Source of the DNA: a virus
Lineage: Duplodnaviria; Heunggongvirae; Uroviricota; Caudoviricetes
Direction: 5' to 3' (one strand)
IMG/VR virus record: IMGVR_UViG_2698536651_000005
Span: 1 to 29,368 of that record
Length of the DNA stretch: 29,368 nt
Shown here: piece by piece, positions 5,181-29,368 of the stretch
Numbering within the stretch: the stretch's first letter is position 1
Layout of the letters: each line of letters begins with the position of its first letter
Program-made: the position numbers and the translations under genes
The notes under the pieces: generated by a model
What the model saw: only the letters and a program-made list of their open reading frames with translations
The model's database searches: none
Told to the model about the DNA's origin: nothing

Positions 5181-5398
5181 CAGAACCTCACCAGTTTATA
5201 TCCCGGGTTCCCCCGTCGCCGCGCAGTCAGGGCAGCAAGACGCCGCTCCCACTCCTGACGCCCCTGTCGGATCTCGGACAGGTTTTCCATGGTCATCTGC
5301 TGACCATTAAAGGTGACGGATTTTCCATCCAGCACAGACATTTCCGCATCAATATAACGCTGGATCATGGCTTCAATATCATTCTGATTCATAACCAT
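5180..5398 (-). CDS. head-tail joining protein (lambda gpW-like)
   Basis: 72 aa; C-terminus ...RRRGNPGYKLVRF resembles lambda W C-terminus as recalled (...RRRGPAGFYV); lies between terminase large subunit and portal. Confidence 0.65.
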   Translation of the reverse strand: MVMNQNDIEAMIQRYIDAEMSVLDGKSVTFNGQQMTMENLSEIRQGRQEWERRLAALTARRRGNPGYKLVRF

Positions 5399-7488
5399 CC
5401 TCCGGATGTCACCCAGGGGTTATCCTCATCGGGTGCCATTTTTTTTCGTTTCTTTTTTCTGGCCGGGGGACGTTCCGGCTCCGGCAGAACAGGTGGCTCC
5501 GCGTTGTCACTGACACACTCCAGCCAGGTTTCCCGGCACGCCCACTCCGGCGCATCAGGCCACTGAATTTTCTCGTACCCATGCAGAATGACCAGCGCCT
5601 CGGCATACACCATCAGGTCAAAGGCTTCGTTCGCACCGCGCCCCGGCTTACTCCATTTCCCGTCACTGCTCCGCTCTTCATACGTCAGTTCGTCGTAAAA
5701 CCAGCTCCCCAGCCAGTCGGGAAAATGCACATAGCCAGGACCGGGAGAATCACGCCATAACGCGTTATTCACCCGGTCTTTCAGAGCGTCAGTCTGAAGA
5801 AGCCAGAGAGGCACATCACCCGCAGCCTGCGCCCGTCGGCCCGTTCGTCCGGTGTTATCAGGGAATGTACGGGTGATCAGTTTTGCGCGCCGGATGCTGT
5901 CGCCCTTAAACAGGTAAATACGTTTACCAAGGCCATCACGACGGCAACGACGCCAGAATTTATAGGCATTATCAGTGACCCCGTCTTCACCGCCGGAGTC
6001 CACCGCCATTGCCATCAGTCGCATTTGTTGAGAAGGGTCGGAGGCCAGCGGCCAGCTTTTATGAAAAACATCCGTCAGCAGGACATCCCAGTCTTCCGGA
6101 TAGCTGGCCGGATCAATTCGCTGGCTCTCCCCGTCGCTGTCACCGCGCAATGACTGCGTGATGTTGTAACGATCAATAATCCAGCGTTCGCCACGGCTGC
6201 CATAGCCCGTTACCTGAACCACAAAACGGCGATGACGTCCCGCCTGCACATCCACTGTCGCCACAAGGAAATTAACGCCATCCGGCACACTGCGGGAAGG
6301 AACTGGCTCCGCCCGCTGCTCAAGCAGTTCACTTTTTCGTTGCTCCATGCTGGCACGAGGAAGATAAGGCAATCCCCAGTCGGTGTTGATAACCGCCCTG
6401 AGTGTTTCTTCGCTTCCTGTCGCTTCATACTCCTGTTCTGCAGTCAGTAATTTGTAAACCAGTTGCGCCCAGGTCTGATACGCAGCAGCTGGCCCTTCCA
6501 TCCAGAAACTGGCGATACGGGAGCGGCGCGGTTCACCGGAAACGTTGCCGTTACGATCAATGACCTGACCTTCACGCAACCAGACTCCTGCACTATTGAG
6601 CTCACGCTTTTTCTCCGCAGTGATAATGCCGCTGCAGTGCGGGCAAAGTAGATACGCCGCCTCACTGGCTTTAAAGGGATCCGGTTCATTACGGTAGCCG
6701 GTCATGGCATCCATGGCTGGCTGAAAATATTCACCGCAGTGCGGACATGACCAGTACCAGCGGCGGCGGTCACCACGATTGTAAAGGGAAAGAATACCAG
6801 TCGTCGGTGGCGCTTCATGAGGCGACTTACGTCGCCATTTGCTGTCGCAGATGTCACGTCCCGGCGAGCTCTCCACCAGAGTCATCCCGGCGGACATAAA
6901 TGTGGTGGTACGTTTTGAGGCCAGGGAGAAACCATCACCCTCGCTGTCGATATTCTCCGGAAAACGGTCGTAATCGGTTAAGGCGACAAACCGGTAATCC
7001 GACGACGACATAATGTTGACCGAGGGCCAACCAATTTTAAGGAACGAGCCATCCCTGAACGTCTTATCATGGACATTATTGTCGTTACGACGTGGACTCA
7101 TTCTTTTCTTTACCGCCGCACTGCTTCTGAACGTTCTGTCGAGGCGCTTTTTAGAATGCTCGCGGGCCTTATCTTCGGTCATCTGCACAACGAGCATGTC
7201 CGAAGGATCGCAAACGATGGTATAGACAATCCATCCATCGATCAGACCAATGGTCTTCCCTGTTCGCGCAGGACCAACAAAAATCACCGCATCGTATTCA
7301 CGCGATGCCAGGCAGTTCATGGGCTCAATGATATAGGGTGTCAGTTCAGGATCCCATGGCACCGAGTTACCAGCCCCCTTGGGAACACGCATGAATTTTT
7401 TAACAGCCTCCGAAATCGGCATGCGACGTGGTGGGGAAAATCCTGCCGATATGTCCCTTCCCAAATTTCGGGCTGATGAAAAACCCAT
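5389..7488 (-). CDS. terminase large subunit (lambda gpA family)
   Basis: 699 aa; Walker A-like GPARTGKT near N-terminus; AGGAGG RBS 5 nt upstream of ATG 7488; follows small terminase. Confidence 0.85.
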   Translation of the reverse strand: MGFSSARNLGRDISAGFSPPRRMPISEAVKKFMRVPKGAGNSVPWDPELTPYIIEPMNCLASREYDAVIFVGPARTGKTIGLIDGWIVYTIVCDPSDMLVVQMTEDKAREHSKKRLDRTFRSSAAVKKRMSPRRNDNNVHDKTFRDGSFLKIGWPSVNIMSSSDYRFVALTDYDRFPENIDSEGDGFSLASKRTTTFMSAGMTLVESSPGRDICDSKWRRKSPHEAPPTTGILSLYNRGDRRRWYWSCPHCGEYFQPAMDAMTGYRNEPDPFKASEAAYLLCPHCSGIITAEKKRELNSAGVWLREGQVIDRNGNVSGEPRRSRIASFWMEGPAAAYQTWAQLVYKLLTAEQEYEATGSEETLRAVINTDWGLPYLPRASMEQRKSELLEQRAEPVPSRSVPDGVNFLVATVDVQAGRHRRFVVQVTGYGSRGERWIIDRYNITQSLRGDSDGESQRIDPASYPEDWDVLLTDVFHKSWPLASDPSQQMRLMAMAVDSGGEDGVTDNAYKFWRRCRRDGLGKRIYLFKGDSIRRAKLITRTFPDNTGRTGRRAQAAGDVPLWLLQTDALKDRVNNALWRDSPGPGYVHFPDWLGSWFYDELTYEERSSDGKWSKPGRGANEAFDLMVYAEALVILHGYEKIQWPDAPEWACRETWLECVSDNAEPPVLPEPERPPARKKKRKKMAPDEDNPWVTSGGWL

Positions 7489-11445: not shown

Positions 11446-11522
11446 TGGAGAGCGGGTGGCGGGAATCGAACCCGCATCATCAGCCTGGAAAGCTGAGGTA
11501 ATAGCCATTATACGATACCCGC
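11446..11522 (-). tRNA. tRNA-Gly (anticodon UCC)-like, atypical 3' end
   Basis: reverse strand reads GCGGGUAUCGUAUAAUGGCUAUUACCUCAGCUUUCCAGGCUGAUGAUGCGGGUUCGAUUCCCGCCACCCGCUCUCCA: near-identical to E. coli glyT as recalled through D and T arms, anticodon loop UU-UCC-AG; acceptor 3' strand differs and there is a 2-nt insertion before CCA. Confidence 0.7.
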
Positions 11523-11740: not shown

Positions 11741-12787
11741 TTAAAAATCTTTCGTTATTTCTCTGACCGTCTGATTAAAACGTTCCTCTTCCAGTTCCAC
11801 GCCAATCGCCCTGCGTCCCAGCAACAGTGCCGCTTTTATCGTGGAACCTGACCCCATAAAAAAATCTGCGACCAAATCGCCTGGACGGCTGCTGGCAGTA
11901 ATTATCTGACGCAACATATCCGCCGGTTTTTCACAGGGATGTTTGCCCGGATAATACTGCACGGGCTTGTGCGTCCAGACATCCGTATAAGGAACGACAG
12001 CCGATACGGAAAAATAACGCCGCAGTGATTTGTATTCCTCCAGCAGGCTGACATATTGCCGGTTCAGTTCGCTGTATGTGCTGACCAGCTGGTGATGTGG
12101 CTGCTCCAGTTCACCGCGCTGGTGTTTTTCTGCCGCCACACGTGCAAACAGCGCCTGCAGTTTACTGTAATCGGCCTCATTCGGTAACTGCCACTGACTG
12201 GTACCAAACCAGTGCGAAGCCATGTTTTTCTTTCCGGTGGCTTCTGCTATCTGTTTTGACGTTATCCCCAGTGATTCGCGCGCATCACGAAAGTAAGAAA
12301 TCAGCGGGGCCATGACATGCTGCTTAAGCTCGCGCCCCTTTGCTGCATAACCGTCACTTTTGGGCTGGTATGGCCCCTGATAATGTTCGGCAAACAGAAT
12401 GCGCTCTGTTGCCGGGAAATACGCCCGCAGGCTTTCCTTGTTGCACCCATTCCAGCGTCCGGACGGCTTCGCCCAGATAATGTGGTTCAGCACATTAAAA
12501 CGTTCACGCATCATGAGTTCGGTGTCAGATGCCAGGCGATGACCACAGAACAGGTAAAGACTTCCGGCGGGTTTTAATACCCGCCAGAACTGCGCAAGAC
12601 ACTGGTCCAGCCATTGCAGGTAATCAGCGTCGCCCTTCCACTGGTTATCCCAGCCCTCGGGCTTCACTTTAAAGTATGGCGGGTCTGTGACTATCAGATC
12701 GACAGAGTTTTCCGGTAAGGTCCGGATAAATTCCAGGCAATCAGCGTTGATTAACTCACAACTGGATATTTTTACAGTATTAGCCAT
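11741..12787 (-). CDS. DNA N6-adenine (or N4-cytosine) methyltransferase, beta-class, orphan
   Basis: motif IV DLIVTDPPY near N-terminus and SAM-binding motif FFMGSGST near C-terminus (order IV then I); no adjacent restriction endonuclease candidate. Confidence 0.85.
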   Translation of the reverse strand: MANTVKISSCELINADCLEFIRTLPENSVDLIVTDPPYFKVKPEGWDNQWKGDADYLQWLDQCLAQFWRVLKPAGSLYLFCGHRLASDTELMMRERFNVLNHIIWAKPSGRWNGCNKESLRAYFPATERILFAEHYQGPYQPKSDGYAAKGRELKQHVMAPLISYFRDARESLGITSKQIAEATGKKNMASHWFGTSQWQLPNEADYSKLQALFARVAAEKHQRGELEQPHHQLVSTYSELNRQYVSLLEEYKSLRRYFSVSAVVPYTDVWTHKPVQYYPGKHPCEKPADMLRQIITASSRPGDLVADFFMGSGSTIKAALLLGRRAIGVELEEERFNQTVREITKDF

Positions 12788-13135: not shown

Positions 13136-13643
13136 GTCTTTTTCCCTTTTCCGGTTAACGTGACATACCAATAACTCTTGTCGAAAAAGCCAGCAAGCTG
13201 AAAGACCGGTATTCGTAACCACCAGCACGTTTAACGTCCTGTGCCGTTTTTCGGGTACAAAAAACAGCCCGACGGCGGTTTTAAGGAAGGAGTCGAAGCA
13301 ACCACTCTTAACATCATAATTGAATTTTTACGTACGTAAACCACAAATACGCCACTCAAATGTTAATGCTCTATAACAAAACCAAACATGCGAATAACAC
13401 ATATTACACCAAATACATCATTGTTATTTTTCAATGAAAAATGAGTAAATAATGTATTTCATTAATTAAATTCCGCATTACACAAAAATATCGACAAATT
13501 ACACCAACGCGCATAAATGAGATCTTGATCATATTATCAATCACTAAATTAAACTTGCCTCTTGAAATAACCACATTGATTAGATGAATATTTATCGCGC
13601 AGTGACATCATTTTTTAAAAATAGTTCAAAAAAAGGGTTCGTG

Positions 13644-14747
13644 ATGAAAAAATTAACGGTGGCAATTTCTGCTGTGGCTGCATCAGTACTGATGGCGATG
13701 TCTGCTCAGGCAGCAGAGATTTATAATAAAGACAGCAACAAGTTGGATCTGTACGGAAAAGTTAATGCTAAGCACTACTTCTCCTCTAACGATGCAAATG
13801 ATGGCGACACAACTTATGCTCGTCTGGGTTTCAAAGGCGAAACTCAGATCAACGATCAACTGACTGGTTTCGGTCAGTGGGAATATGAATTCAAAGGAAA
13901 CCGTACTGAAGAACAGGGAGCAGCCAAAGATAAAACCCGTCTTGCATTTGCAGGGCTTAAATTCGGTGACTACGGCTCCGTCGATTACGGTCGTAACTAC
14001 GGTGTAGCATACGATATCGGTGCATGGACTGACGTTCTGCCAGAATTCGGTGGAGATACCTGGACCCAAACAGATGTATTCATGACTGGTCGCACCACTG
14101 GTGTTGCAACTTATCGTAACAACGACTTCTTTGGTCTGGTTGATGGTCTGAATTTTGCTGCACAGTACCAGGGTAAGAATAATCATGATCGTAGTAGCTT
14201 AGATAACTACACCAAAGGCAATGGCGATGGTTTTGGTTTCTCTGCGACCTATGAATACGAAGGTTTCGGCATTGGTGCAACGTATGCGAAATCTGATCGT
14301 ACCGACACTCAAGTCAAATTGGGTAAACTTCTCCCAGGAGTATTTGCTTCCGGCGAAAATGCAGAAGTCTGGGCTGCAGGTCTGAAATACGACGCAAACA
14401 ACGTTTATCTGGCAACAACCTATTCAGAAACCCAGAATATGACTAAATTCGCAGATTACTTTGTGGCTAATAAAGCACAAAACTTCGAAGCTGTTGCACA
14501 ATATCAGTTCGATTTCGGTCTGCGTCCGTCTGTTGCTTATCTGCAATCAAAAGGTAAAGATCTTGGCATTTTTGGTGACCAAGATTTAGTCAAATATGTT
14601 GATGTTGGCGCAACTTATTATTTCAACAAAAATATGTCTACATTCGTTGATTACAAAATCAACCTGCTTGACAAAAATGACTTTACTAAAGCTCTTGGTG
14701 TAAACACTGACGATATCGTTGCTGTAGGTATGGTATACCAGTTCTAA
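13644..14747 (+). CDS. outer membrane porin, OmpC/NmpC/phage Lc family (prophage moron)
   Basis: signal peptide [23 protein letters not shown] then [16 protein letters not shown]..., C-terminal ...[11 protein letters not shown]; classic general-porin hallmarks; track ORF begins at 13584 but ATG 13644 gives a canonical signal peptide. Confidence 0.9.
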
Positions 14748-19139: not shown

Positions 19140-19360
19140 ACGGCACCTCCCAGGCGTTTAAACATTTTTCCGGACTGAAACACCGCCAGTGGGTAGCTAA
19201 TGGTGTAGTTACGCCCCAGTAATTCACACACAACTTTCTGGTTTTCGGTGCTGACCAGACAAACCCGCAGAACGTGACCGTTGCTGGTGGCGAACCACTG
19301 CCCCACACGGGGGCAACGGTTGTATCGGTGATACAGGGAATTAACGACGCGGCGAATCAT
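19136..19360 (-). CDS. hypothetical protein (74 aa)
   Basis: ATG at 19360 with GGGAGGTG RBS; ATGA overlap with upstream gene. Confidence 0.4.
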   Translation of the reverse strand: MIRRVVNSLYHRYNRCPRVGQWFATSNGHVLRVCLVSTENQKVVCELLGRNYTISYPLAVFQSGKMFKRLGGAV

Positions 19361-20022
19361 GGGCGCACCTCCCATTGATTACGACGGAAAGCGGTGTGAC
19401 TGAGACTGGTTTCAGTTTCATGGAATGCTTCAATGCAGCTCTCGTAGTACCGCATTGTGCGCAGACTTAACCCAAGCTGAAGCATCATCAGGCCATCAAG
19501 GGTGATGTAATAACCACGCAGGGAGTCACCATAGATGTGATAAGTACCCGGTATGAAATTGCGGGTAAAAAACTCGCGTGAGCAGTTCAGATACTCGATT
19601 TTGTCGACGATGTTCTGGTGCATGCGCTTGAAATGGCAGGCTACATGCAAAGAGAAAATAACGGTCTTACCGTTAATAATCTCAATTTTGAGGAATGGGT
19701 GGGTAGTGGTGGTAGTCATGGTGACAGCCCCTATGTTGAATTCAAAGAACTCACCACCAAGGCTTTCCACGACCATATAGGTGGTGAGACGTACAGGGGT
19801 GGAAATACCGGTCAACATAGAACCCGGCCCAACCGAAGTTGGCCCTGCACGCCCCACCATAATTTGGGCGTAGCAATGCTCATGACACGAAAAAACCGCA
19901 TGAGCGCGGTTGTGCTCTATATTGAATTTCGGGTTTCCACGCCCGACACCCGCTTTATAAGGTGCTGGAACAGTGTAACGTCCCGAAATTGCAGAATCAA
20001 TATATTGTGCAAACATAACCAT
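19357..20022 (-). CDS. hypothetical protein (221 aa)
   Basis: 3' portion of a 509-aa reverse-strand ORF; ATG at 20022 chosen so it does not overlap the forward-strand TA genes; no SD, start uncertain; no recognised motifs. Confidence 0.35.
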   Translation of the reverse strand: MVMFAQYIDSAISGRYTVPAPYKAGVGRGNPKFNIEHNRAHAVFSCHEHCYAQIMVGRAGPTSVGPGSMLTGISTPVRLTTYMVVESLGGEFFEFNIGAVTMTTTTTHPFLKIEIINGKTVIFSLHVACHFKRMHQNIVDKIEYLNCSREFFTRNFIPGTYHIYGDSLRGYYITLDGLMMLQLGLSLRTMRYYESCIEAFHETETSLSHTAFRRNQWEVRP

Positions 20023-20040
20023 TTTGTTATGTTTTAACTC

Positions 20041-20370
20041 ATGAACTACACTATCGAATACTACAGTGAAGAGGTCAGGCTGGAGGTCGACCAGCTTCCA
20101 TTGAGTATGCGTGCCCGATACCAGCATCTTGTTGAACGCATGAAGGTATACGGCAGCAATCTCGGAGAACCTCATACCAGTGCTTTCGGTAACGGGCTTT
20201 TCGAGCTTCGGATTAAAGGTAGTGATGGCATCGCACGCATCTTTTACTGCACCCTGGCAGGAAAACGCATCATCATGCTGCATAGTTTCATCAAGAAGAC
20301 CCAGAAAACCCCACCAGCCGAACGCCAAAAAGCTGAAACCAGAATGAAGGAGGTAAAGCATGACTGGTAA
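20041..20370 (+). CDS. type II toxin, RelE/ParE superfamily (HigB-like, phage Gp49-like)
   Basis: 109 aa, ...GIARIFYCTLAGKRIIMLHSFIKKTQKTP... typical of Gp49/HigB-type toxins; 11-nt overlap with downstream HTH antitoxin gene. Confidence 0.7.
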   Translation: MNYTIEYYSEEVRLEVDQLPLSMRARYQHLVERMKVYGSNLGEPHTSAFGNGLFELRIKGSDGIARIFYCTLAGKRIIMLHSFIKKTQKTPPAERQKAETRMKEVKHDW

Positions 20371-20668
20371 ACGTAATCCGCCAACCATTACACATGATGA
20401 AATGGCTGATAAATGGATGAAGGATCCAGCTTTTAAAGCAGAATACGACGCCATCGCCGACGAATTTGCGCTGCTTGATGAAATGCTGGCAGCACGTAAA
20501 GAGGCTGGTTTAACCCAGGCTGACGTCGCTGAACGCATGGGAACCAAAGCTACTGTCATCAGCAGAATGGAAAGTAATCTGGCGTCAGGTGTCAGTGGAC
20601 CATCATTTTCCACACTGAAAAAATTTGCCCGCGCAACAGGAAAAAAACTCCAGATCCGCTTCGTGTAA
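20360..20668 (+). CDS. HTH (XRE-type) antitoxin, HigA-like
   Basis: AAGGAGGT RBS; HTH LTQADVAERMGTKATVISRMES; toxin-first gene order as in HigBA. Confidence 0.75.
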   Translation: MTGKRNPPTITHDEMADKWMKDPAFKAEYDAIADEFALLDEMLAARKEAGLTQADVAERMGTKATVISRMESNLASGVSGPSFSTLKKFARATGKKLQIRFV

Positions 20669-20689
20669 GTTTCCACCATTGCACCGTCA

Positions 20690-20863
20690 TTCTGGCGGTG
20701 CTTCGCACTCAACAAAATCACGACGAAATAACCACAACGGACTGAAACATTCATGCGGATAACCATCACGCAGGTAAATGACCCGCTGTGTTTCAGACTC
20801 CCAGCGTATAACGTGGACGCGACGCCCTCTGCCATCGCGGAACCAGCGATTGAGTACTTGCAT
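20690..20863 (-). CDS. possible small protein (57 aa)
   Basis: ORF below the track size cut-off, directly downstream of Rha gene; AGGT-type weak RBS. Confidence 0.2.
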
Positions 20864-20882
20864 GTGTTACCTGTGAGCATAA

Positions 20883-21593
20883 TCACACCTGCCAGCCCAG
20901 CGCCTGAAACAGGCCCATTTTCGGGTGATACCAGCGAGTACCTCGTGGTTCTGCTTCACTCATCATGCGATAAAAAGCAAACATGAAGGGTTCTACTGCA
21001 ACAATCGCGCGACGAGACAATAATCCGTCCGGCGTCATAAATTCATGGGTGTCGGTAGGGATCTGATATGCGTTCACCAGATTGCGGCATTTCGCATCTG
21101 ACATACCTGTTTTCGCCACCAGCTGACGGTATCCTGCATAACCATCGCGTATGGTGCCTCTTTTGATTTGTTCGACAGTTTCGGCAACGTGGCTAACTTT
21201 TTCTTCCATCTTGTCGAGGCGTTTTTGCTGACGAACTGCTTCAAGAGCCATCGCGGCAACCATTTCGATTTCGCTCATTGGCTTACGGATCTGTTCTTCC
21301 AGTTCACGCCAACGATCTACCAGGCGGGCAGTGAATTCCGGGCAAAGTTGTGCGACGACAATGATGCTGTCGCGTTTGCCTTGTTCGCCTTCGAAAATAT
21401 ATGCGTTTGTGAATTTGTTTTGGCTAAATGATTGTTCGTTCTCAACTTTTTGCATTGCAGGAAGTTGAATCACCCCGCGTTTTGCCAGACGCTCTATTGA
21501 TATTCTGACATTGCCGTGTTGACTTCCAACCAGCTCTGCGATTTCAACGCTGGTCATGGATACTTTGTCGTTAAAAATTGCGGTGTTCATCAT
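20883..21593 (-). CDS. phage regulatory protein, Rha family
   Basis: N-terminal region (SMTSVEIAELVGSQHGNVRISIERL) matches the Rha-type domain as recalled; GAGGAG RBS; ATGA coupling with upstream gene. Confidence 0.7.
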   Translation of the reverse strand: MMNTAIFNDKVSMTSVEIAELVGSQHGNVRISIERLAKRGVIQLPAMQKVENEQSFSQNKFTNAYIFEGEQGKRDSIIVVAQLCPEFTARLVDRWRELEEQIRKPMSEIEMVAAMALEAVRQQKRLDKMEEKVSHVAETVEQIKRGTIRDGYAGYRQLVAKTGMSDAKCRNLVNAYQIPTDTHEFMTPDGLLSRRAIVAVEPFMFAFYRMMSEAEPRGTRWYHPKMGLFQALGWQV

Positions 21594-22323: not shown

Positions 22324-22352
22324 TTTAACCACTTCAGGCTCGGTGGTATACT
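22324..22352 (+). promoter_or_regulatory. candidate sigma70 promoter with extended -10 (TGgTATACT)
   Basis: -35-like TTTAAC/TTAACC, 17-bp spacer, TGGTATACT at 22344-22352; 34 nt upstream of ATG 22386. Confidence 0.35.
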
Positions 22353-22385: not shown

Positions 22386-22613
22386 ATGACTGATACAACT
22401 AAATTCAGCGTTGAAACCAAGCTAGACGGCCTTGAGGCATTACTTGGTTTATTGCTGTCGTCCCTTCCCATCCAAGAGCGAATAAAGCTCGCAGCATCCG
22501 GAATGGAGTTAATTAAAAACCTGAAAAGTCAGCCGCAACAGCAGAGGGAGCGAGGACAGGATATGTGTGAATACATCGCTGCCGTTCTGGATAACTCCAT
22601 CAACCAGGATTAA
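22386..22613 (+). CDS. hypothetical protein (75 aa), opposite orientation to early operon
   Basis: own promoter-like element, AAGGA RBS; no recognised motifs. Confidence 0.4.
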   Translation: MTDTTKFSVETKLDGLEALLGLLLSSLPIQERIKLAASGMELIKNLKSQPQQQRERGQDMCEYIAAVLDNSINQD

Positions 22614-22734: not shown

Positions 22735-23007
22735 TTACCTCCCCTCCCCCGTGTGCGCTAAGCTTGGATTTGATGTTTTGCGTAACGAATCAGGAATTCC
22801 ATCTTCAGGGTGAGGGTAAAGATCTGGCCTTAAGCCATGAGGCGTAACCTTCCATGCAACCACCTCACATACCCGTAAAACGAAACGAGCAGGAATTGTG
22901 CTTTTTGAAAACCACTGATTCACCGCTTGCGGTGTCACACCAAGATTTCGCGCTATGGCATTTTGCGCAATTAATGCACGAAGTTCGTCGTAATCATTTC
23001 CTTTCAT
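22735..23007 (-). CDS. Cro-like HTH regulator (YdaS-like)
   Basis: HTH NLGVTPQAVNQWF; divergent from CI repressor gene across a 133-bp intergenic region; GGTGA RBS. Confidence 0.65.
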   Translation of the reverse strand: MKGNDYDELRALIAQNAIARNLGVTPQAVNQWFSKSTIPARFVLRVCEVVAWKVTPHGLRPDLYPHPEDGIPDSLRKTSNPSLAHTGEGR

Positions 23008-23061
23008 AACAAATCACCAAGATAAACTTAATGAATCAAGAATACATCAATTTTAAATTAA

Positions 23062-23096
23062 CATGCAAGTTGCAAAAGGATCGAATACACTAAAAT
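23062..23096 (+). promoter_or_regulatory. candidate cI promoter (TTGCAA-17-TAAAAT) overlapping palindrome TGCAAgTTGCA
   Basis: hexamers at 23068-23073 and 23091-23096; perfect 5+1+5 palindrome at 23062-23072 overlaps the -35; within cro/cI divergent intergenic region. Confidence 0.4.
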
Positions 23097-23140
23097 CAAG
23101 TAAAGATTTATCCTTGTAAAGAAACCCACAGGACCTGGTC

Positions 23141-23830
23141 ATGAAGAACGTCAAAAACACGGAAAATCGTATAGCCGCGATGCTGAAAGCAAAAGGATGG
23201 ACTCAAGCTCAACTGGCCCGTAAGTTAGGTGTGAGTGCGCAATCAGTGCAGTACTGGACAACAGGAAAGACATTTCCACGGAGTGATAAGCTTGCGCAGT
23301 TATCAGAGATTAGCGGTTATCCACAATCCTGGTTCTTAGGTGAAGACCCCTCACCGACCTTCTCCTCGCCAGAGAAACACCAGACAAGAACAGATAGCGT
23401 CGTGTTTAATGTCCTTGATGTTGAGTTCAGTTGCGGTGATGGAACTCATGTCCGTGGTGACTTGATAGATGTAGTGCGCTCAATAGAACTTGATCCTGAA
23501 TATGCCCGACGTCTTGTTGGAAATCGGGCATTCAAAAATATAGAAATAGGTAACGCCAGAGGAGACAGTATGGCTCCCACAATCTCACCTGGCGACCTTC
23601 TTTTTCTCGATAAGACAGTAACTTATTTTGATGGAGATGGCATTTATGCATTTTGTTTTGATGGAGAATGCTACGTGAAAAGACTTCAAAAAATTGGAAG
23701 CAAAATCATGGTGTTATCTGATAACCCCAATTATCAACCATGGAGCATCGAAAAAGAGGGTTTAGCTCTGCTTTATATCCAGTCTAAAGTGATCTCATCT
23801 GTACCATTCAATATAAACAGATTTGGTTAG
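23141..23830 (+). CDS. cI: CI-type prophage repressor (N-terminal HTH, C-terminal S24 LexA-like peptidase)
   Basis: HTH WTQAQLARKLGVSAQSVQYW; S24 motifs GDSM (Ser nucleophile) and YVKRL (Lys). Confidence 0.9.
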   Translation: MKNVKNTENRIAAMLKAKGWTQAQLARKLGVSAQSVQYWTTGKTFPRSDKLAQLSEISGYPQSWFLGEDPSPTFSSPEKHQTRTDSVVFNVLDVEFSCGDGTHVRGDLIDVVRSIELDPEYARRLVGNRAFKNIEIGNARGDSMAPTISPGDLLFLDKTVTYFDGDGIYAFCFDGECYVKRLQKIGSKIMVLSDNPNYQPWSIEKEGLALLYIQSKVISSVPFNINRFG

Positions 23831-23841
23831 TCTTTGATTTT

Positions 23842-23864
23842 AACGGGCTTTGCCCGTTTTTTCT
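23842..23864 (+). terminator. rho-independent terminator after cI
   Basis: AACGGGC-ttt-GCCCGTT followed by TTTTCT, 12 nt after cI stop. Confidence 0.6.
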
Positions 23865-23892
23865 GCCTAAAATACACGATATCAATTTTTTC

Positions 23893-23921
23893 TTGACAGC
23901 CTATTTCTCAAAGCATAATAT
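23893..23921 (+). promoter_or_regulatory. near-consensus sigma70 promoter (TTGACA-17-TAATAT), pL-like position
   Basis: hexamers at 23893-23898 and 23916-23921; flanked by ATCAAT motifs also present in the cro/cI intergenic region. Confidence 0.5.
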
Positions 23922-23950
23922 CGCACCATCAATTATAACTTGATTAAGTT

Positions 23951-23963
23951 CAATTTAAAATTG
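23951..23963. promoter_or_regulatory. perfect 13-bp palindrome CAATTTaAAATTG (candidate operator)
   Basis: near-identical CAATTTtAAATTa at 23047-23059 in the cro/cI intergenic region. Confidence 0.35.
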
Positions 23964-23974
23964 TTGGCGGATAT

Positions 23975-24436
23975 ATGAAGACACTAAACGCAACTCCAGA
24001 AACAACCAATTTTAGCAACTGCGACTGTGTTACGCTTAAGAGCTTAGAATTTGATTCCTTTGCATTAAATATTGCGAATTTGCTAAGTGCTGTACGCACA
24101 TTCCATCTTCTGGATTGTGCTCGCTCAAAGGAACTGGGCATTGAGGTAATGGAATTTATCCATGAATATGCCCTATCTGCGGCTTCTCCTGCACAACAAA
24201 AACAATCCTTCCCCAAAAGCTGGCTGGTTAACCTTCGCACCCAACGCGAAGCCTGCGGCTTAACAACAGCCGAACTCGCCAGGCTGCTCGATCTCGATGA
24301 AGACATCATAATCCAGTGGGAGAGCGGAGAGTATGAACCAACTATCAGTATGCTTATCCCGCTGGCAAATGTTCTTGGTTGCGACCCGATGTGGCTGTTA
24401 ACCGGTAAACCAACAGCGGGAGATACTTGCGCATGA
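23975..24436 (+). CDS. hypothetical protein with C-terminal XRE-type HTH (153 aa)
   Basis: C-terminal HTH LTTAELARLLDLDEDIIIQWESGEYEPTISMLIPLANVLG; N-terminal ~70-aa domain paralogous to C-terminus of the next gene. Confidence 0.6.
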   Translation: MKTLNATPETTNFSNCDCVTLKSLEFDSFALNIANLLSAVRTFHLLDCARSKELGIEVMEFIHEYALSAASPAQQKQSFPKSWLVNLRTQREACGLTTAELARLLDLDEDIIIQWESGEYEPTISMLIPLANVLGCDPMWLLTGKPTAGDTCA

Positions 24437-24798
24437 AAAAGTTCGAAAACATAACTGTTCTCCATGTTGATAACTTTGATTATACAAACCAGGAACTTCT
24501 CCCGGAGGTTGTAAAGGCAATAGATGTAGCCGATATAGTGATTAGAGGAAAGAGAATTGTCAAAAACAGGCTCGCATGCACTTCAGGAGCAATGACAGAA
24601 ACAACCTCACAACAAGATGATTATGAAGGCATTTGTCTGGAGCCTGATTCATTTGCGGTAAATGTTTATCATTTATTGCATGCAACACAGGTATTACATA
24701 TGTCCAGTAATCACGAAACAAAAGTACTTGGCAGCGAAATTCTGAATTTTGCATGTGAATATGCAAAAGCTGCTGCCGAAAAAGAATTAGCGCAATAA
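24433..24798 (+). CDS. hypothetical protein (121 aa) sharing a domain with the upstream HTH protein
   Basis: ATGA overlap with upstream gene; residues ~70-115 (LEPDSFAVNVYHLL...LGSEILNFACEYAKAAAE) about 45-50% identical to upstream protein residues ~24-70. Confidence 0.55.
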   Translation: MKKFENITVLHVDNFDYTNQELLPEVVKAIDVADIVIRGKRIVKNRLACTSGAMTETTSQQDDYEGICLEPDSFAVNVYHLLHATQVLHMSSNHETKVLGSEILNFACEYAKAAAEKELAQ

Positions 24799-24994
24799 CA
24801 ATAAATATTCCCTGAATGTTTATTACGGTTTTATCGCCGGGGATTGTTGCAACATTTATTCGCAGGAGATTATGTTATGACCTTCCTGAAACATAAGGCA
24901 TCGTATAAAACTGCCTGCCTCATTGCACAACATGGAGATTCTTATCTTCATATAGCCAACCTGTATTTGCGCAAAGCATATGGGAGATAAATAA

Positions 24995-25183
24995 ATGAAA
25001 GAAAAACAACAGAACATAACACATAAAAAAGTAAGAGTGTTGCTAACTATTGAAAATGGTGAAGTAATTTACTCAAAACATCTGTTGGATAATGAATTCG
25101 TTGGTTGCATGGATACATTTCTGTGGATGGCAAAAAGAGCTGGCTACACGATTATTCCACCAGCAAAGGAGCAAACATTATGA
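24995..25183 (+). CDS. hypothetical protein (62 aa)
   Basis: GGGAGA RBS; ATGA coupling to downstream 193-aa gene. Confidence 0.45.
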   Translation: MKEKQQNITHKKVRVLLTIENGEVIYSKHLLDNEFVGCMDTFLWMAKRAGYTIIPPAKEQTL

Positions 25184-25761
25184 ATCATTCAGAGTTCCGA
25201 TCAGAAGTAACGCCACATGGCATAAAAATTGGTAATAAAACCATTGATTATATTGAGGCCGTACAGCGGCTTAATGATGGCGAATTCGATAATCCATACT
25301 GGCACGGTTTAAGAATCATGCAATGTCTTGCCGAAGCTGATGATGCCGGATTGCTGGGAAGATTTTCAGTCGATCTGAAGGTTGCTCAGTGGCGCTGGCT
25401 GTATGTGATGAAGTTTATCAGTGAAGAGGAAAACAAGAACGGCACCATTGATATCCCTAACGATAACGGAACCACAGATCACGCAGTTATTTATAAGGGA
25501 AAGCATGGTTGTATAAGTATATACCCGGGGCCACTTCGCATTGCCCTGCAAAACCATGTTGAATGGGGATTTATTGAAAAATATGGCGAAGCTGAAGGCA
25601 TGGGGAGAGTTCTGTTTCTCTATCAAAAAATGCTCATCGCAGATCCTGATAATGGTTTCATTCTCTCTGCTATGGGGCGCGAAGGGCTTGAACTCCTTCT
25701 GGATGAAATGATTAACGACCTGAATACTCATGGTATGCCAGAAGCGCCAGTGACACATTAA
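25180..25761 (+). CDS. hypothetical protein (193 aa)
   Basis: AAGGAG RBS 8 nt upstream of ATG 25180 (track ORF extends upstream to 25105); no recognised motifs. Confidence 0.55.
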   Translation: MNHSEFRSEVTPHGIKIGNKTIDYIEAVQRLNDGEFDNPYWHGLRIMQCLAEADDAGLLGRFSVDLKVAQWRWLYVMKFISEEENKNGTIDIPNDNGTTDHAVIYKGKHGCISIYPGPLRIALQNHVEWGFIEKYGEAEGMGRVLFLYQKMLIADPDNGFILSAMGREGLELLLDEMINDLNTHGMPEAPVTH

Positions 25762-25780
25762 ATATTAAGAAGACTATAAT
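25750..25780 (+). promoter_or_regulatory. candidate sigma70 promoter (gTGACAc-18-TATAAT)
   Basis: perfect -10 TATAAT at 25775-25780; upstream of small membrane ORFs and SPFH gene. Confidence 0.4.
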
Positions 25781-25937
25781 TCTTCCATTTTTTACTAACC
25801 GTTTATATGAAAAGCAACCGTGAATTAAACAGAGTAAAACTGATTTTAATCCTTGCCACAGTGCTTACACTAACAGAAATCATTATTCTCTTTATTGCGC
25901 TGTCAGTCGGTTAAAAATATCGGGATACCACAGACCA

Positions 25938-26126
25938 ATGAGACTGTATTTCACAATAGTAATTTTACTGGCAATTATCGCATGCATTTACGGATTACTT
26001 GTTCCGTTCCTTATATCCATGAAGGATACGATAGCAGTTATTTCTGGCTTTGCACTGGCGTTTCTGACCCCGCCCTGCATTTATGCCATTTACAAGGGGC
26101 TTTCTTTCACTAAGGATAAAAGATGA
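25938..26126 (+). CDS. small membrane protein (62 aa, 2 TM), partner of SPFH gene
   Basis: two hydrophobic segments; stop overlaps SPFH start (ATGA); no clear SD. Confidence 0.4.
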   Translation: MRLYFTIVILLAIIACIYGLLVPFLISMKDTIAVISGFALAFLTPPCIYAIYKGLSFTKDKR

Positions 26127-26950
26127 AAAAAATTATTTTTGCTTTAGCCATTGTTCTGCCGACAATTGGCCTTGTCGGTTGCGATCGCGTTGAACCAGGT
26201 AATGTTGGCATCAAGGTAAATAAACTGGGCGACGACAAAGGCGTCGGTGAGGTGGTCGGTGTTGGTCGCTACTGGACTGGCTGGAATACTGAAGTTTATA
26301 TCTTCCCCACCTTCAAACAAATGAAGACCTACGATGAACCGTTCAGTTTCCAGATGAGTGACGGTACAACCATCGGCTATCACATCGGTGTGGCCTACAA
26401 AGTTGATCCATCCAAAGTTACCACGGTGTTTCAGACCTACCGCAAAGGCGTGGATGACATTACCGACACTGACCTGCGCCAGAAAATTGCCGACGCACTC
26501 AATCGGCTGGCCAGCAAAATGACCACTGACAAATTTATCGACGGCGGCAAGTCTGAACTACTGGATGCCGCACTTAAAGACATTCAGGAAGAGATGACAC
26601 CCATCGGCATTCAGGTAATGAGCCTCTCTTATGTAGGTAAACCGGAATACCCTCCAACCGTTATCGACAGCATTAACGCCAAAGTCACGGCAAACCAGAA
26701 AACCCTGCAGCGCGAACAGGAAGTCAAGCAACGTGAAGCGGAGGCCAACATGCTACGTGCGGAAGCTGCCGGACAGGCTGATGCCATTCGAACAAAAGCC
26801 CAGGCAGAAGCCGATGCTATTCGTTTACGCGGTGAAGCTCTGCGCCAGAACCCAGGCGTCATGGAGCTGGAAGCCATCAACAAGTGGAACGGTACACTGC
26901 CGCAATACATGACCAGTGGTGCCAATACACCATTTATCCAGATTAAATAA
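26123..26950 (+). CDS. SPFH/band-7 (prohibitin/HflC-like) domain lipoprotein
   Basis: lipoprotein signal MKKIIFALAIVLPTIGLVGC; SPFH-like core (VEPGNVGIKVN...); Ala/Gln/Glu-rich coiled-coil C-terminal region; AAGGA RBS. Confidence 0.75.
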   Translation: MKKIIFALAIVLPTIGLVGCDRVEPGNVGIKVNKLGDDKGVGEVVGVGRYWTGWNTEVYIFPTFKQMKTYDEPFSFQMSDGTTIGYHIGVAYKVDPSKVTTVFQTYRKGVDDITDTDLRQKIADALNRLASKMTTDKFIDGGKSELLDAALKDIQEEMTPIGIQVMSLSYVGKPEYPPTVIDSINAKVTANQKTLQREQEVKQREAEANMLRAEAAGQADAIRTKAQAEADAIRLRGEALRQNPGVMELEAINKWNGTLPQYMTSGANTPFIQIK

Positions 26951-26990
26951 CTTATATGCCCGGCAGGCCGCCGGGCTAAGGGAAATGAAG

Positions 26991-27362
26991 ATGAACACCC
27001 AGAATACTCAACCGCAAATAATGAACTATGACCCGAATCTGACGTCATGCGGACGCATGGCAAAACAAACCGTTCGATTAACTTTCGGACTATGGGAATA
27101 CCGCGAAACATTCGAAGTTACTGTCGGCGGCAATCTGACCGGACTGGATGTTATCAGTTGCGCTATTGAAAGCCTGTACGCAACGCTGCCTTATGAAGAA
27201 GTCGAGGATGAGCGCACAGGGGGAACAGATATCATGGCCACCATTAATATTGGCGAACTGATATGTCAGGATGAAGACCTGTCCGGAGAACTCTGGCTTG
27301 CCGGGATGCTTATCTCAGCAGAAATTATCAGTATTGAACCCGCTACAAACATACGGCTCTGA
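26991..27362 (+). CDS. hypothetical protein (123 aa)
   Basis: ATG 26991 with AAGGGA RBS (track ORF starts at 26916 inside SPFH gene); no recognised motifs. Confidence 0.45.
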   Translation: MNTQNTQPQIMNYDPNLTSCGRMAKQTVRLTFGLWEYRETFEVTVGGNLTGLDVISCAIESLYATLPYEEVEDERTGGTDIMATINIGELICQDEDLSGELWLAGMLISAEIISIEPATNIRL

Positions 27363-27393
27363 AGTTCTCACTATTCAGAGAGCAGGAGAAAAA

Positions 27394-27636
27394 ATGTTTG
27401 CTTTGATTAATCAGGGACAACTGTATACCGACAGTGCCGGTTACCCGGTAAAAATTATTCGCTGCATAAATAACACCGTGTTGTACAGAAGAATGGATGG
27501 GCGAACACAATCGGTAAAAATGAACGATTTTAATGAATCGTTTGAACGGATCGATCACCAGGAATACCGACAAATTCTGGCAGAAACAGAGCAGGAAGCT
27601 CATCTGAAAAAATTACGAGCCATGAAAAGGAAGTAG
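27394..27636 (+). CDS. hypothetical protein (80 aa)
   Basis: AGGAGA RBS 6 nt before ATG 27394. Confidence 0.45.
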   Translation: MFALINQGQLYTDSAGYPVKIIRCINNTVLYRRMDGRTQSVKMNDFNESFERIDHQEYRQILAETEQEAHLKKLRAMKRK

Positions 27637-27639
27637 CGA

Positions 27640-27786
27640 ATGAATAAAGCGTTTGAGCTATGGGTACGCCAGCGTTACGGCAATCGTTATGACCTGACGC
27701 GAGATGTTGACGGTTTCTACTGCCGTGAAGTTGTGAAACGAATGTTTGAGGTGTGGTGCCACTGCCGTGGGCTGAAAGTTTTATGA
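27640..27786 (+). CDS. possible small protein (48 aa)
   Basis: AAGGAAG RBS, starts 4 nt after upstream stop; below track size cut-off. Confidence 0.3.
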   Translation: MNKAFELWVRQRYGNRYDLTRDVDGFYCREVVKRMFEVWCHCRGLKVL

Positions 27787-27793
27787 GGTTGAC

Positions 27794-28048
27794 ATGCAGA
27801 CAATCATCTATCAAATAACACCAAGTAAATGGTGTACAGAAAGCACCCTCATTGCTTCGACAGGGCTAAAACCAGGCACCATTGAGCGAGCCAGGAAAAA
27901 ATCATGGCTACAGGGGAAAGAATATCGACATTACGCTGTCGATGGAATTCCGAAGAGCAACAGTGAATGCGTATACAACATAGAGGAAATTATGCGCTGG
28001 ATCGAAAATCAGAAACAACCAGGTGTTAAAAATGCAAGTTCCGGTTAA
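27794..28048 (+). CDS. excisionase-like DNA-binding protein
   Basis: 84 aa immediately upstream of integrase; GAGG RBS; assignment mainly by position and size. Confidence 0.45.
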   Translation: MQTIIYQITPSKWCTESTLIASTGLKPGTIERARKKSWLQGKEYRHYAVDGIPKSNSECVYNIEEIMRWIENQKQPGVKNASSG

Positions 28049-28081
28049 CCTGTTAATGCTCCTGGACGTCTGGGAGGTTTA

Positions 28082-29368
28082 ATGAGTAATACATCATACC
28101 CAACAGGCGTTGAAAATCATGGCGGATCACTCCGCATATGGTTTTACTATAACGGCAAACGTGTCAGAGAAAACCTCGGTGTTCCTGACACCGCCAAAAA
28201 CCGGAAAATCGCAGGTGACCTCCGCACTTCCGTTTGTTTTGCAATCAGAATGGGGAGTTTCGACTATGCAGCACAGTTCCCTGAGTCCCCTAACCTGAAA
28301 CACTTTGGTCTGGGGAAAAGAGAGATAACCATTAAAGCACTTTCGGAAAGATGGCTTGAACTGAAGAAAATAGAGATTTGTGCAAATGCACTTAACCGTT
28401 ACCAGTCAGTAATTAAAAACATGTTGCCAATGTTAGGTGAAAAAAGACTGGTTTCATCTGTAACAAAAGAGGATTTGCTTTTCGTAAGGCGAGATCTGTT
28501 GACCGGTTATCAAAAGCTTTCTAACGGAAAAATTTCTTCCATAAAAGGACGCTCAGTGGTCACAGTAAACTACTATATGACAACCATAGCTGGAATGTTT
28601 CAATTTGCAACAGATAATGGTTATACATCAGGAAATCCATTTAACGGTCTGACACCATTAAAAAAGTCCAAGATAGAACCAGATCCCCTCACCCGTGACG
28701 AATTTATTCGTTTTATTGAGGCTTGCCGTCATCAACAAACAAAAAACCTGTGGATTATCGCTGTATACACGGGTATTCGTCACGGGGAGCTGGTATCACT
28801 GGCCTGGGAAGATATAGACCTTAAAGCGAGGACTATAACCATCCGCCGGAATTATACAAAACTAGGCGAATTCACTCCACCAAAAACTGATGCTGGTACC
28901 GGAAGAACGATTCATCTGGTTCAACCAGCTATTGATGCTCTTAAAAGCCAAGCGGAAATGACCATGCTTGGAAAACAGCATTCTGTAGAGGTAAAGCAGA
29001 GGGAATATGGGAGAAGTACTGTGCATAAATGCACTTTTGTTTTTAGTCCTCAGGTAATAAAACAGCGGCAGTTTTCCGGACCGCACTATAAGGTTGACTC
29101 CATCAGGGAGTCATGGACAAGTATCTTAAAACGCGCAGGTCTGAGACACAGAAAATCGTATCAATCCAGGCATACCTATGCATGCTGGTCACTTGCCGCA
29201 GGAGCTAATCCTAGTTTTATCGCAAGCCAGATGGGCCACACAAACGCACAAATGGTATTCAATGTTTACGGAGCATGGATGAAAGACAACAATCACGAAC
29301 AGATAGAACTTCTTAACAGAAGACTATCTGAAAGTGTCCCATGCATGCCCCATAAGAAAGCGGGGTAA
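28082..29368 (+). CDS. int: tyrosine-type site-specific integrase
   Basis: 428 aa; catalytic region with TGIRHGEL (Arg), SRHTYACW (His-x-x-Arg) and VYGAW (Tyr)-like segments; GGGAGG RBS; stop coincides with window end. Confidence 0.9.
   Translation: MSNTSYPTGVENHGGSLRIWFYYNGKRVRENLGVPDTAKNRKIAGDLRTSVCFAIRMGSFDYAAQFPESPNLKHFGLGKREITIKALSERWLELKKIEICANALNRYQSVIKNMLPMLGEKRLVSSVTKEDLLFVRRDLLTGYQKLSNGKISSIKGRSVVTVNYYMTTIAGMFQFATDNGYTSGNPFNGLTPLKKSKIEPDPLTRDEFIRFIEACRHQQTKNLWIIAVYTGIRHGELVSLAWEDIDLKARTITIRRNYTKLGEFTPPKTDAGTGRTIHLVQPAIDALKSQAEMTMLGKQHSVEVKQREYGRSTVHKCTFVFSPQVIKQRQFSGPHYKVDSIRESWTSILKRAGLRHRKSYQSRHTYACWSLAAGANPSFIASQMGHTNAQMVFNVYGAWMKDNNHEQIELLNRRLSESVPCMPHKKAG

Follow-up and report, generated by a model that had tools for sequence, protein, structure and literature searches.

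A gene pair with a shared predicted two-helix hairpin, putatively the first genes of the early-left operon in lambdoid prophages of the Enterobacteriaceae

In Bacillus subtilis, the helix-turn-helix (HTH) regulator SinR, of the XRE type, carries a two-helix oligomerisation domain, and next to its gene a small gene encodes SinI, which is paralogous to that domain but has no DNA-binding part; SlrR and SlrA form a paralogous pair of the same kind. The surface of the SinR/SinI heterodimer is made of residues conserved between both proteins, and heterodimer formation abolishes DNA binding by SinR (PMC3163267). In AimC/AimX, a lysis-lysogeny module of arbitrium Bacillus phages, oligomerisation of the repressor is prevented by a small helical protein that binds it, which the authors liken to SinI mimicking the SinR oligomerisation domain (bioRxiv 10.1101/2025.11.23.689978). 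In phages TP901-1 and phi13, the first gene of the CI-repressed lytic promoter encodes Mor, a small HTH-fold protein that binds the N-terminal domain of CI (PMC7250872, PMC11149083). Here we describe a pair of overlapping genes in IMG/VR record IMGVR_UViG_2698536651_000005, analysed as one stretch of 29,368 nucleotides (hereafter the window), which represents the regulatory region and left arm of a lambdoid prophage. The first, ORF1 (23975-24436, + strand), encodes a 153-residue protein of the phiP27 L10 family, phrog_4836. The second, ORF2 (24433-24798, + strand), encodes a 121-residue protein of the phiP27 L08 family, phrog_5451, and is a fusion of two modules.

The pair resembles SinR/SinI and SlrR/SlrA in that an XRE-HTH protein with a predicted two-helix domain is followed by a paralogue of that domain without the DNA-binding part. 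Unlike SinR, in which the two-helix oligomerisation domain is C-terminal, ORF1 has its predicted hairpin at the N-terminus; further differences are the apparent co-transcription of ORF1 and ORF2 in a phage early-left (pL) operon, the acidic HTH, and the extra module of the partner. Pfam searches at E<=1 did not place either protein in a SinI-type family or ORF1 in the CII family, returning HTH families and a marginal Vps53_N match for ORF1 and nothing, hence no HTH, for ORF2. AimC/AimX differs in its Gram-positive hosts, its peptide signalling and the lack of any sequence relation, and the main repressor here is a separate S24-type cI. With CI-Mor the locus has in common an HTH-fold protein as first gene of a repressor-controlled promoter, but Mor lies in the cro position and has neither a hairpin domain nor a paralogous partner. 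ORF1 and ORF2 occupy the place of lambda N as the first genes behind pL and its operators (oL), yet neither gave a Pfam match to N, CII or CIII, and both are acidic where N is arginine-rich; the PHROGs label of the ORF1 family, 'CII-like regulator', is an annotation without evidence. From phiP27 L10, finally, ORF1 differs by a non-homologous N-terminal domain, and in phiP27 the gene L09 and an 80-residue ORF separate L10 from L08. The locus is best described as an uncharacterised early module that belongs by sequence to the phiP27 L10/L08 families, resembles SinR/SinI in its logic, and replaces N by position.

The genes that frame the pair are readily assigned. A cro-like gene with a YdaS/P22_Cro-type HTH (22735-23007, - strand; Pfam YdaS_toxin 1.2e-12, P22_Cro 1e-4) is divergent from cI (23141-23830, + strand), which encodes an HTH and an S24 self-cleaving domain (Pfam Peptidase_S24 4e-17, HTH_3 5e-9). 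A predicted intrinsic terminator of cI follows at 23842-23865 (+ strand; stem 23842-23858 of 7 bp with five GC pairs, then a T-run). The promoter TTGACA-17-TAATAT lies beyond it at 23893-23921 (+ strand; -35 hexamer 23893-23898, -10 hexamer 23916-23921, 10 of 12 positions matching the consensus). ORF1 and ORF2 overlap by ATGA, with the ORF2 ATG at 24433 and the ORF1 TGA at 24434-24436. The terminator, the promoter, both genes and their overlap had been described in an earlier note on this DNA, and all are confirmed.

Promoter-like matches by themselves do not exceed chance here, four having been found where 6.3 were expected; the reality of this promoter rests instead on conservation of its hexamers in diverged relatives. 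Operators were compared within the cI family of the window, among the window itself, PhiR49_2, Stx2_EH2201 (78% DNA identity) and locus L075. Stx2_EH2201 retains both hexamers, but its spacer has diverged. A first putative oL site, ATCAATTTTTTCTTGAC (23881-23897), overlaps the -35 hexamer, and its half-sites are invariant in the four diverged phages. A second, the perfect ATCAATTATAACTTGAT found by motif scan at 23928-23944, lies directly 3' of the -10 hexamer. ATCAA-N7-TTGAC over the -35 hexamer and a perfect ATCAA-N7-TTGAT 47 bp further on are invariant in four of four phages, as the promoter spacer drifts. A third, weaker oL-like site (23949-23965) includes the palindrome CAATTTAAAATTG, the reverse complement of which is identical at 13 of 14 positions to an operator sequence at 23048 in the cro-cI region. 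In that region (oR), a motif scan located ATCAA-N7-TTGAT-like sites at 23016-23032, 23035-23051, 23046-23062 and 23095-23111; they are conserved in PhiR49_2, Stx2_EH2201 and L075, and the motif is present three to four times in oR throughout this cI family.

The correspondence between the two regions extends to other immunity types. In six types, the cro-cI region and the region after cI have a motif in common, and each type has its own. The match is 14 of 14 positions in loci L006 and L008 (reached in none of 200 shuffles) and 13 of 14 both in phiP27 (1 of 200 shuffles) and in the window (2 of 200); in L077 the motif of both regions is AAAGTTGTT, and in L080 it is AATTACTTT. These operator-like sites are not ORF1's own, because heteroimmune phages with different sites have a near-identical ORF1 HTH.

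The promoter at 23893-23921 is identified as pL/oL because operators of the cro-cI class overlap its -35 hexamer and follow its -10 hexamer. It lies 3' of cI on the same strand and heads a long co-directional series of genes: from 23975 to about 28100 every gene is on the + strand, heading towards xis/int, and the integrase gene (28082-29368) closes the run of + strand genes that starts after cI. A simple scan of 24700-28120 found no + strand terminator and no better + strand promoter, the first predicted terminator appearing not before 28122; an Rfam scan of 23800-25100 found no RNA family. Because no later + strand terminator or better promoter is predicted, ORF1 and ORF2 head the whole early-left operon, and the claim that the pair forms a two-gene cassette with a promoter of its own has to be given up. 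We therefore regard the promoter as the phage pL, and it is very probable, from this arrangement of sites and genes, that ORF1 and ORF2 form an immediate-early module, the first genes of an early-left operon of about 4 kb that is under cI control and silent in the lysogen. Since pL carries cI-type operators, repression of both genes in the lysogen is expected, and they would be among the first products made after infection or induction.

This placement bears on the suggestion, made in the earlier note from the lambda N/rexAB neighbourhood, that the pair is a superinfection-exclusion or defence system. In lambda, rexAB is co-transcribed with cI and lies upstream of the terminator. The position of ORF1 and ORF2 is that of N, downstream of pL, and not that of rexAB. 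A self-contained superinfection-exclusion or anti-phage cassette expressed in the lysogen would fit a cI-adjacent location that is generally rich in such genes, two uncharacterised proteins and a near-consensus promoter. But that promoter has cI-type operators and is the only good promoter of the 4-kb operon, and repression by cI would leave little lysogen expression, which undercuts an exclusion or defence role. PADLOC gave no match for ORF2 and only generic HTH matches for ORF1, and in prophages of the Enterobacteriaceae the genes are consistently found at the head of pL, unlike a patchily distributed moron. True inserts at this place look different, as does the reverse-strand BRCT-like gene of L077. 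We consider a defence cassette decidedly improbable. What survives of the 'undescribed immunity-region system' proposed earlier is an undescribed regulatory module that lies partly inside the immunity region; the stand-alone defence system does not. The BRCT-like gene itself (293 residues, 1962-2843, - strand, in L077 and L078, a Salmonella relative) has a weak BRCT match and is inserted between cI and pL; as a moron it truly occupies the 'rex position', and it makes a stronger candidate for defence than do the hairpin genes.

Least probable of all is that the pair is a type II toxin-antitoxin system, with an XRE antitoxin and a small toxin, or an antitermination factor of the N/Nun kind. XRE HTH proteins are common antitoxins, though the HipB- and MqsA-type NCBIfam matches of ORF1 are weak and confined to its HTH. 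ORF2 resembles no toxin family in Pfam or PADLOC, its single NCBIfam match being far below threshold (E 0.01, 15 bits against a cut-off of 336); moreover the two proteins have a domain in common, and control by cI is unlike an autoregulated toxin-antitoxin operon. An N-like factor would suit the position, which equals that of lambda N, but neither protein has an arginine-rich motif or a Pfam match to N, and no terminators in need of antitermination are predicted in the operon. Both proteins are acidic, with isoelectric points (pI) of 4.6 for ORF1 and 5.1 for ORF2. Homology to N/Nun or to another characterised regulator, which the earlier note had named as one outcome that would overturn its view, was looked for and not found.

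The second main finding is a domain that occurs in both proteins. By BLASTP, residues 24-65 of ORF1 and 69-110 of ORF2 are 43% identical over 42 residues (E 1e-8). PHROG models, built independently of the question posed here, agree: those of ORF2 and of the stand-alone domain match ORF1 at 8e-7 and 3e-7, and that of ORF1 matches ORF2 at 6e-4. In ORF1 the domain spans residues 23-72 (24041-24190, + strand; hidden Markov model E 3.5e-20), modelled by AlphaFold2 (AF2) as a two-helix hairpin (helices 26-45 and 49-69) with a predicted local distance difference test (pLDDT) score of about 70. In ORF2 it spans residues 64-121 (24622-24795, + strand), with predicted helices at 74-89 and 94-120, and corresponds to a stand-alone gene of 63-80 codons in many loci. 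An alignment of 14 sequences from both families has invariant Asn, Gly, Phe and Tyr. The duplication reported from the sequence alone is thus borne out by pairwise alignment, by the cross-matches of the PHROG models and by the predicted structures.

The hairpin domain matches no family in Pfam, PADLOC or the Protein Data Bank (PDB), where neither its profile nor ORF2 found any sequence at E<=10, and fold searches with the hairpin proteins returned generic hairpins only; literature searches turned up nothing on proteins of the ORF1 or ORF2 type. The structure prediction and the profile and fold searches called for earlier thus yield two-helix hairpins with generic fold matches only, and the statement that neither protein is recognisable is upheld. 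An exhaustive profile search recovered the hairpin family as 39 clusters among 1.84 billion protein representatives, confined to Enterobacteriaceae prophages. Its named members come from Escherichia, Shigella, Salmonella, Klebsiella, Enterobacter and Yokenella and are annotated 'hypothetical' or 'HTH domain-containing'. The architectures are a stand-alone protein of 60-80 residues without an effector domain, which is the commonest form; a hairpin followed by one to three XRE HTH domains; and the L08 type. Free and HTH-attached hairpins form separate clades, as examined for the free copies of E. coli, Yokenella and L075; within one locus, the free and the HTH-attached hairpin are 23-42% identical. 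Because free copies cluster apart from their HTH-attached neighbours, the duplication must be old, with both copies retained.

It could be argued that the hairpin is a generic homodimerisation module, reused by two unrelated proteins that act independently. ORF2 does have its own N-terminal module, partners are shuffled among ORF1 types, and each gene occurs alone in some loci. Yet a pure dimerisation module has no activity of its own, and bare hairpins of 60-80 residues are the commonest form; adjacency or overlap of the two genes persists in distant lineages, and fusion events have occurred. Independent reuse of this kind appears improbable.

The N-terminal part of ORF2 is a small beta/alpha module (residues 1-51, 24433-24585, + strand). 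The AF2 model has strands and a helix within residues 9-45, then a disordered linker, then the hairpin. In L075 the counterpart of this module is a separate gene of 69 codons (BLASTP 35% identity, E 2e-9), overlapping a free hairpin gene of 67 codons that matches ORF2 (45% identity, E 1e-13). The module motif DVVIVDGKVVKNR also occurs between HTH1 and HTH2 of a Salmonella member with three HTH domains. Judged by these relatives, ORF2 is a fusion of two genes that stand apart elsewhere. The ratio of nonsynonymous to synonymous substitution is below 1 for both halves, at about 0.5 for the N-terminal half, and the full 121-residue frame is conserved at the protein level. In EC11, a near-identical genome, the NCBI pipeline annotates only a 68-residue product from the internal ATG at 24592. 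This in-frame ATG (Met54 of ORF2) has AGGAG upstream at a short spacing of 2 nt. The gene may give both the full-length protein and a free hairpin, as its start sites suggest.

The C-terminal part of ORF1 is an XRE domain similar to P22 C2 (residues 87-141, 24233-24397, + strand; Pfam HTH_3 E 3.4e-11), and it aligns to the N-terminal domains of the P22 C2 and 434 repressors in the PDB. This HTH has a net charge of -6 and a pI of 4.1, against net charges of +7 for the HTH of cI and about +5 for that of P22 C2, and its recognition helix starts D-E-D-I where that of P22 C2 has S-N-V-A. Two sequences downstream of ORF2 were considered as its target and rejected: an AT-rich palindrome directly after ORF2 (24801-24825) is not conserved, and a 31-nt element (24823-24853) travels with the downstream genes and not with the HTH. 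That non-coding element, TTACGGTTTTATCGCCGGGGATTGTTGCAAC, is an observation in its own right, recurring in over 55 loci, Shiga toxin (Stx) phages included, at a distance of about 25 nt from the end of the second hairpin gene; it is followed in the window by an ORF of 38 codons (24877-24990) that is conserved at the protein level.

Relatives of the pair are scattered over many prophages. ORF2 is 97% identical to phiP27 L08, and the HTH half of ORF1 has about 93% DNA identity to L10; homologues are also found as two 'hypothetical' genes of phage PhiR49_2. The PHROGs concerned are 4836, 5451 and 4587, and the phiP27 counterparts are annotated 'unknown' in NC_003356. DNA of the pair matches 325 of 5,426 complete E. 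coli genomes (about 6%). A tblastn search of 50,697 phage records detected ORF2 or its hairpin in just 24 of them, including phiP27, ASU11, PhiR49_2 and 20 Stx1a-, Stx2a- or Stx2d-converting phages. Gene order is conserved well beyond E. coli: cro on the - strand, cI with its S24 domain on the + strand, a hairpin gene, and a small gene that overlaps it or closely follows. Of the immunity types examined, most have a hairpin gene directly behind pL, whether or not an HTH is attached; the exception is the phiP27-type loci, in which no hairpin is detectable in the first gene. In nearly all of about 70 loci a second hairpin gene comes after the hairpin-HTH gene, often overlapping it or within 6 nt, and such a pair recurs in Yokenella, Salmonella and the Stx phages of E. 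coli.

Overlap by ATGA, as with ORF2, is one way among several in which the two genes are joined, although tight coupling to some hairpin gene is common: variants of the junction include a 129-nt gap, a 576-nt insertion, and a stand-alone hairpin gene of 63-80 codons that lies within 6 nt of the stop or overlaps it. In phiP27 (L002), an unannotated ORF of 80 codons (5200-5442; MKNCDAYHICL…, phrog_23054) is ATGA-coupled to L10, and this ORF and the reverse-strand L09 lie between L10 and L08; the 576-nt insert of phiP27 is present in several IMG/VR loci too. The window junction, …GCGCATGAAAAAGTTCG, differs from that of phiP27 by the sequence between two ATGAAAAA repeats, which suggests a deletion or insertion at the ATGAAAAA microhomology. 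Elsewhere at this place, in three IMG/VR prophages (L036, L040 and L042, about 4150-5500), an insertion resembling a mobile element truncates or removes L08 and leaves ORF1 intact. Small helical proteins of the pattern MKTP[IL]xxLxE…CLIRSxxKT… follow a hairpin-HTH gene or a free hairpin in L007, L073, L080, L059 and L068, with a conserved gene of about 118 codons (RRRxxVxAKL…RRTGG) next after them; neither gene is in the window.

Comparison of immunity types divides ORF1 in two. Homology to seven heteroimmune loci begins at 24225-24236, the junction between the N-terminal domain and the HTH, where the Pfam HTH match starts, and this is the right-hand end of the immunity-specific mosaic segment; the DNA matches in E. 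coli genomes also start there (query position 368). Across six types, the N-terminal domain of ORF1 varies 1:1 with the type of cI, while the HTH is conserved across immunity types and the type of partner is shuffled among N-domain types. Among complete E. coli genomes, 74 have the N-terminal domain of the window, 186 the 'type B' domain of phiP27 and 25 a third type. Type B has no detectable similarity to the hairpin family by BLASTP or by hhalign (probability 1.4%), its own family being too shallow for a strong profile. The idea that it is a hidden hairpin, or a paralogue of the ORF that follows it, was dropped after BLASTP and hhalign (probability <=2%) found nothing. ORF1 is a clean case of a gene that straddles the boundary of the immunity module, with one hypervariable and one conserved half.

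How might such a pair work? We propose, tentatively and at somewhat less than even odds, that ORF1 and ORF2 are an immediate-early regulatory pair working through their paralogous hairpins. ORF1 joins an immunity-specific hairpin to a conserved XRE-fold domain; ORF2 combines a small beta/alpha module with a further hairpin from that family and lacks a DNA-binding domain. A single helical hairpin would need a second one to bury its core, so that ORF1 and its partner could form mixed four-helix bundles that set the oligomeric state and activity of ORF1, as SinI does with SinR. The partner would either antagonise ORF1 or complete it, and the target of ORF1 would be DNA or a protein such as cI. 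Mixed bundles are proposed because a paralogous hairpin is found on a coupled neighbour, both copies have been retained, bare hairpins exist, and fusions have occurred. As an account of the locus as a whole, early genes headed by pL that encode hairpin-paired regulators seem to us the best explanation, about as likely to be right as wrong.

A series of observations weighs against regulation through paired hairpins. In phiP27 and the 186 type B E. coli genomes, the HTH protein has a different N-terminal domain in which no similarity to the hairpin family is detectable, and L08 or a free hairpin is still present; type B proteins are the majority in E. coli. In Klebsiella loci L079 and L080 a free hairpin is the first pL gene and there is no HTH protein; conversely, L007 and L073 have a hairpin-HTH protein without a free hairpin, its place being taken by an unrelated helical 'MKTP…' protein. 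Because partner types shuffle among N-domain types, no co-variation points to a specific interface. A regulator and its antagonist co-transcribed at a fixed ratio are not an obvious switch. The AF2 models are only moderate, with pLDDT of 62 and 68. Canonical DNA binding by ORF1 is made doubtful by the charge of its HTH and the D-E-D-I start of its recognition helix, and a conserved DNA target for the HTH was sought in the relatives and none found. ORF1 may be an unconventional DNA-binding regulator, or none.

Several of these facts would fit a common target. The hairpin could be an autonomous protein-binding module, with the ORF1 N-terminal domain and the free copy both engaging a third protein: the cognate cI or Cro, RNA polymerase, a protease or another host factor, in the manner of a CIII-like decoy or a Mor-like antirepressor, and with the acidic XRE fold of ORF1 binding protein and not DNA. 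Free hairpins without a hairpin-bearing HTH protein, in phiP27-type loci and in L079 and L080, are then expected, as is a hairpin gene in first place after pL in most immunity types irrespective of any HTH. The ORF1 N-terminal domain lies inside the immunity module and goes 1:1 with cI type, both proteins and the recognition helix are acidic, and the Mor proteins of TP901-1 and phi13 set a precedent for an HTH-fold antirepressor made from a lytic promoter (PMC11149083, PMC7250872). Linkage alone, however, accounts for the co-variation of N-terminal domain and cI, since the immunity region offers no homology at which exchange could take place; the free copy shows no variation linked to cI type and is therefore not cI-specific; the phage already has Cro; and no candidate target has been identified. 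We judge a common target, the main rival reading, possible but somewhat unlikely.

A bolder variant, which we hold to be rather unlikely, would make the hairpin a new, Enterobacteriaceae-specific switch component that replaces N, cII and cIII in N-less lambdoid phages, Stx phages among them. The immunity-specific hairpin of ORF1 would dock on cI or Cro of its own immunity type, or on the complexes that these form with their operators, the acidic XRE fold would offer a protein-binding or DNA-mimicking surface, and the conserved free copy, in the window fused to a small beta module, would buffer the first. The outcome would be an immediate-early commitment circuit not recognised before, with its specificity determinant inside the immunity region.

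Elsewhere in the window, the gene content includes the Q antiterminator, DnaB-, DnaC- and O-like replication genes and Rha/Ant-like regulators. Just beyond cro, an ORF of 75 codons (22386-22613, + strand) with a good Shine-Dalgarno sequence opposes the pR operon and faces cI; it is preceded by the promoter-like TGGTATACT (22344-22352), is 90% conserved in heteroimmune phage L003 and has no family match. A moron and a pRE-like transcription unit are both conceivable. By Rfam, a C4 antisense RNA (82 bits) and isrK (59 bits) adjoin at 19777-19965 (- strand), inside the N-terminal part of a long ORF (19357-20886, - strand), the C-terminal half of which is Ash plus Rha; this region looks like an antisense-controlled antirepressor module of the P1/P7 type within a cI-S24 lambdoid prophage. 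Between Q and a DNA methylase gene lies a moron, a full-length Gram-negative porin gene (Porin_1, E 1e-151), and a tRNA gene is near it; the coordinates of this group are 13584-14747 (+ strand), 11451-11522 (- strand) and 11741-12787 (- strand). At 25938-26950 (+ strand), an ORF for a 62-residue membrane protein is paired with a Band_7/SPFH lipoprotein gene. This pair and the ORF1 HTH are the sole segments in common with the otherwise different L064 and L068, and the pair may be a candidate for lysogenic conversion or exclusion.

The ORF1/ORF2 module is real, conserved and previously unstudied, and its function we infer. It would head the early-left operon of widespread N-less lambdoid prophages, Stx phages among them. 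Because these phages have no recognisable N, cII or cIII, the first pL proteins are the obvious candidates for control of early timing and of the choice between lysis and lysogeny. In Stx phages, altered commitment to lytic growth would mean altered toxin output.

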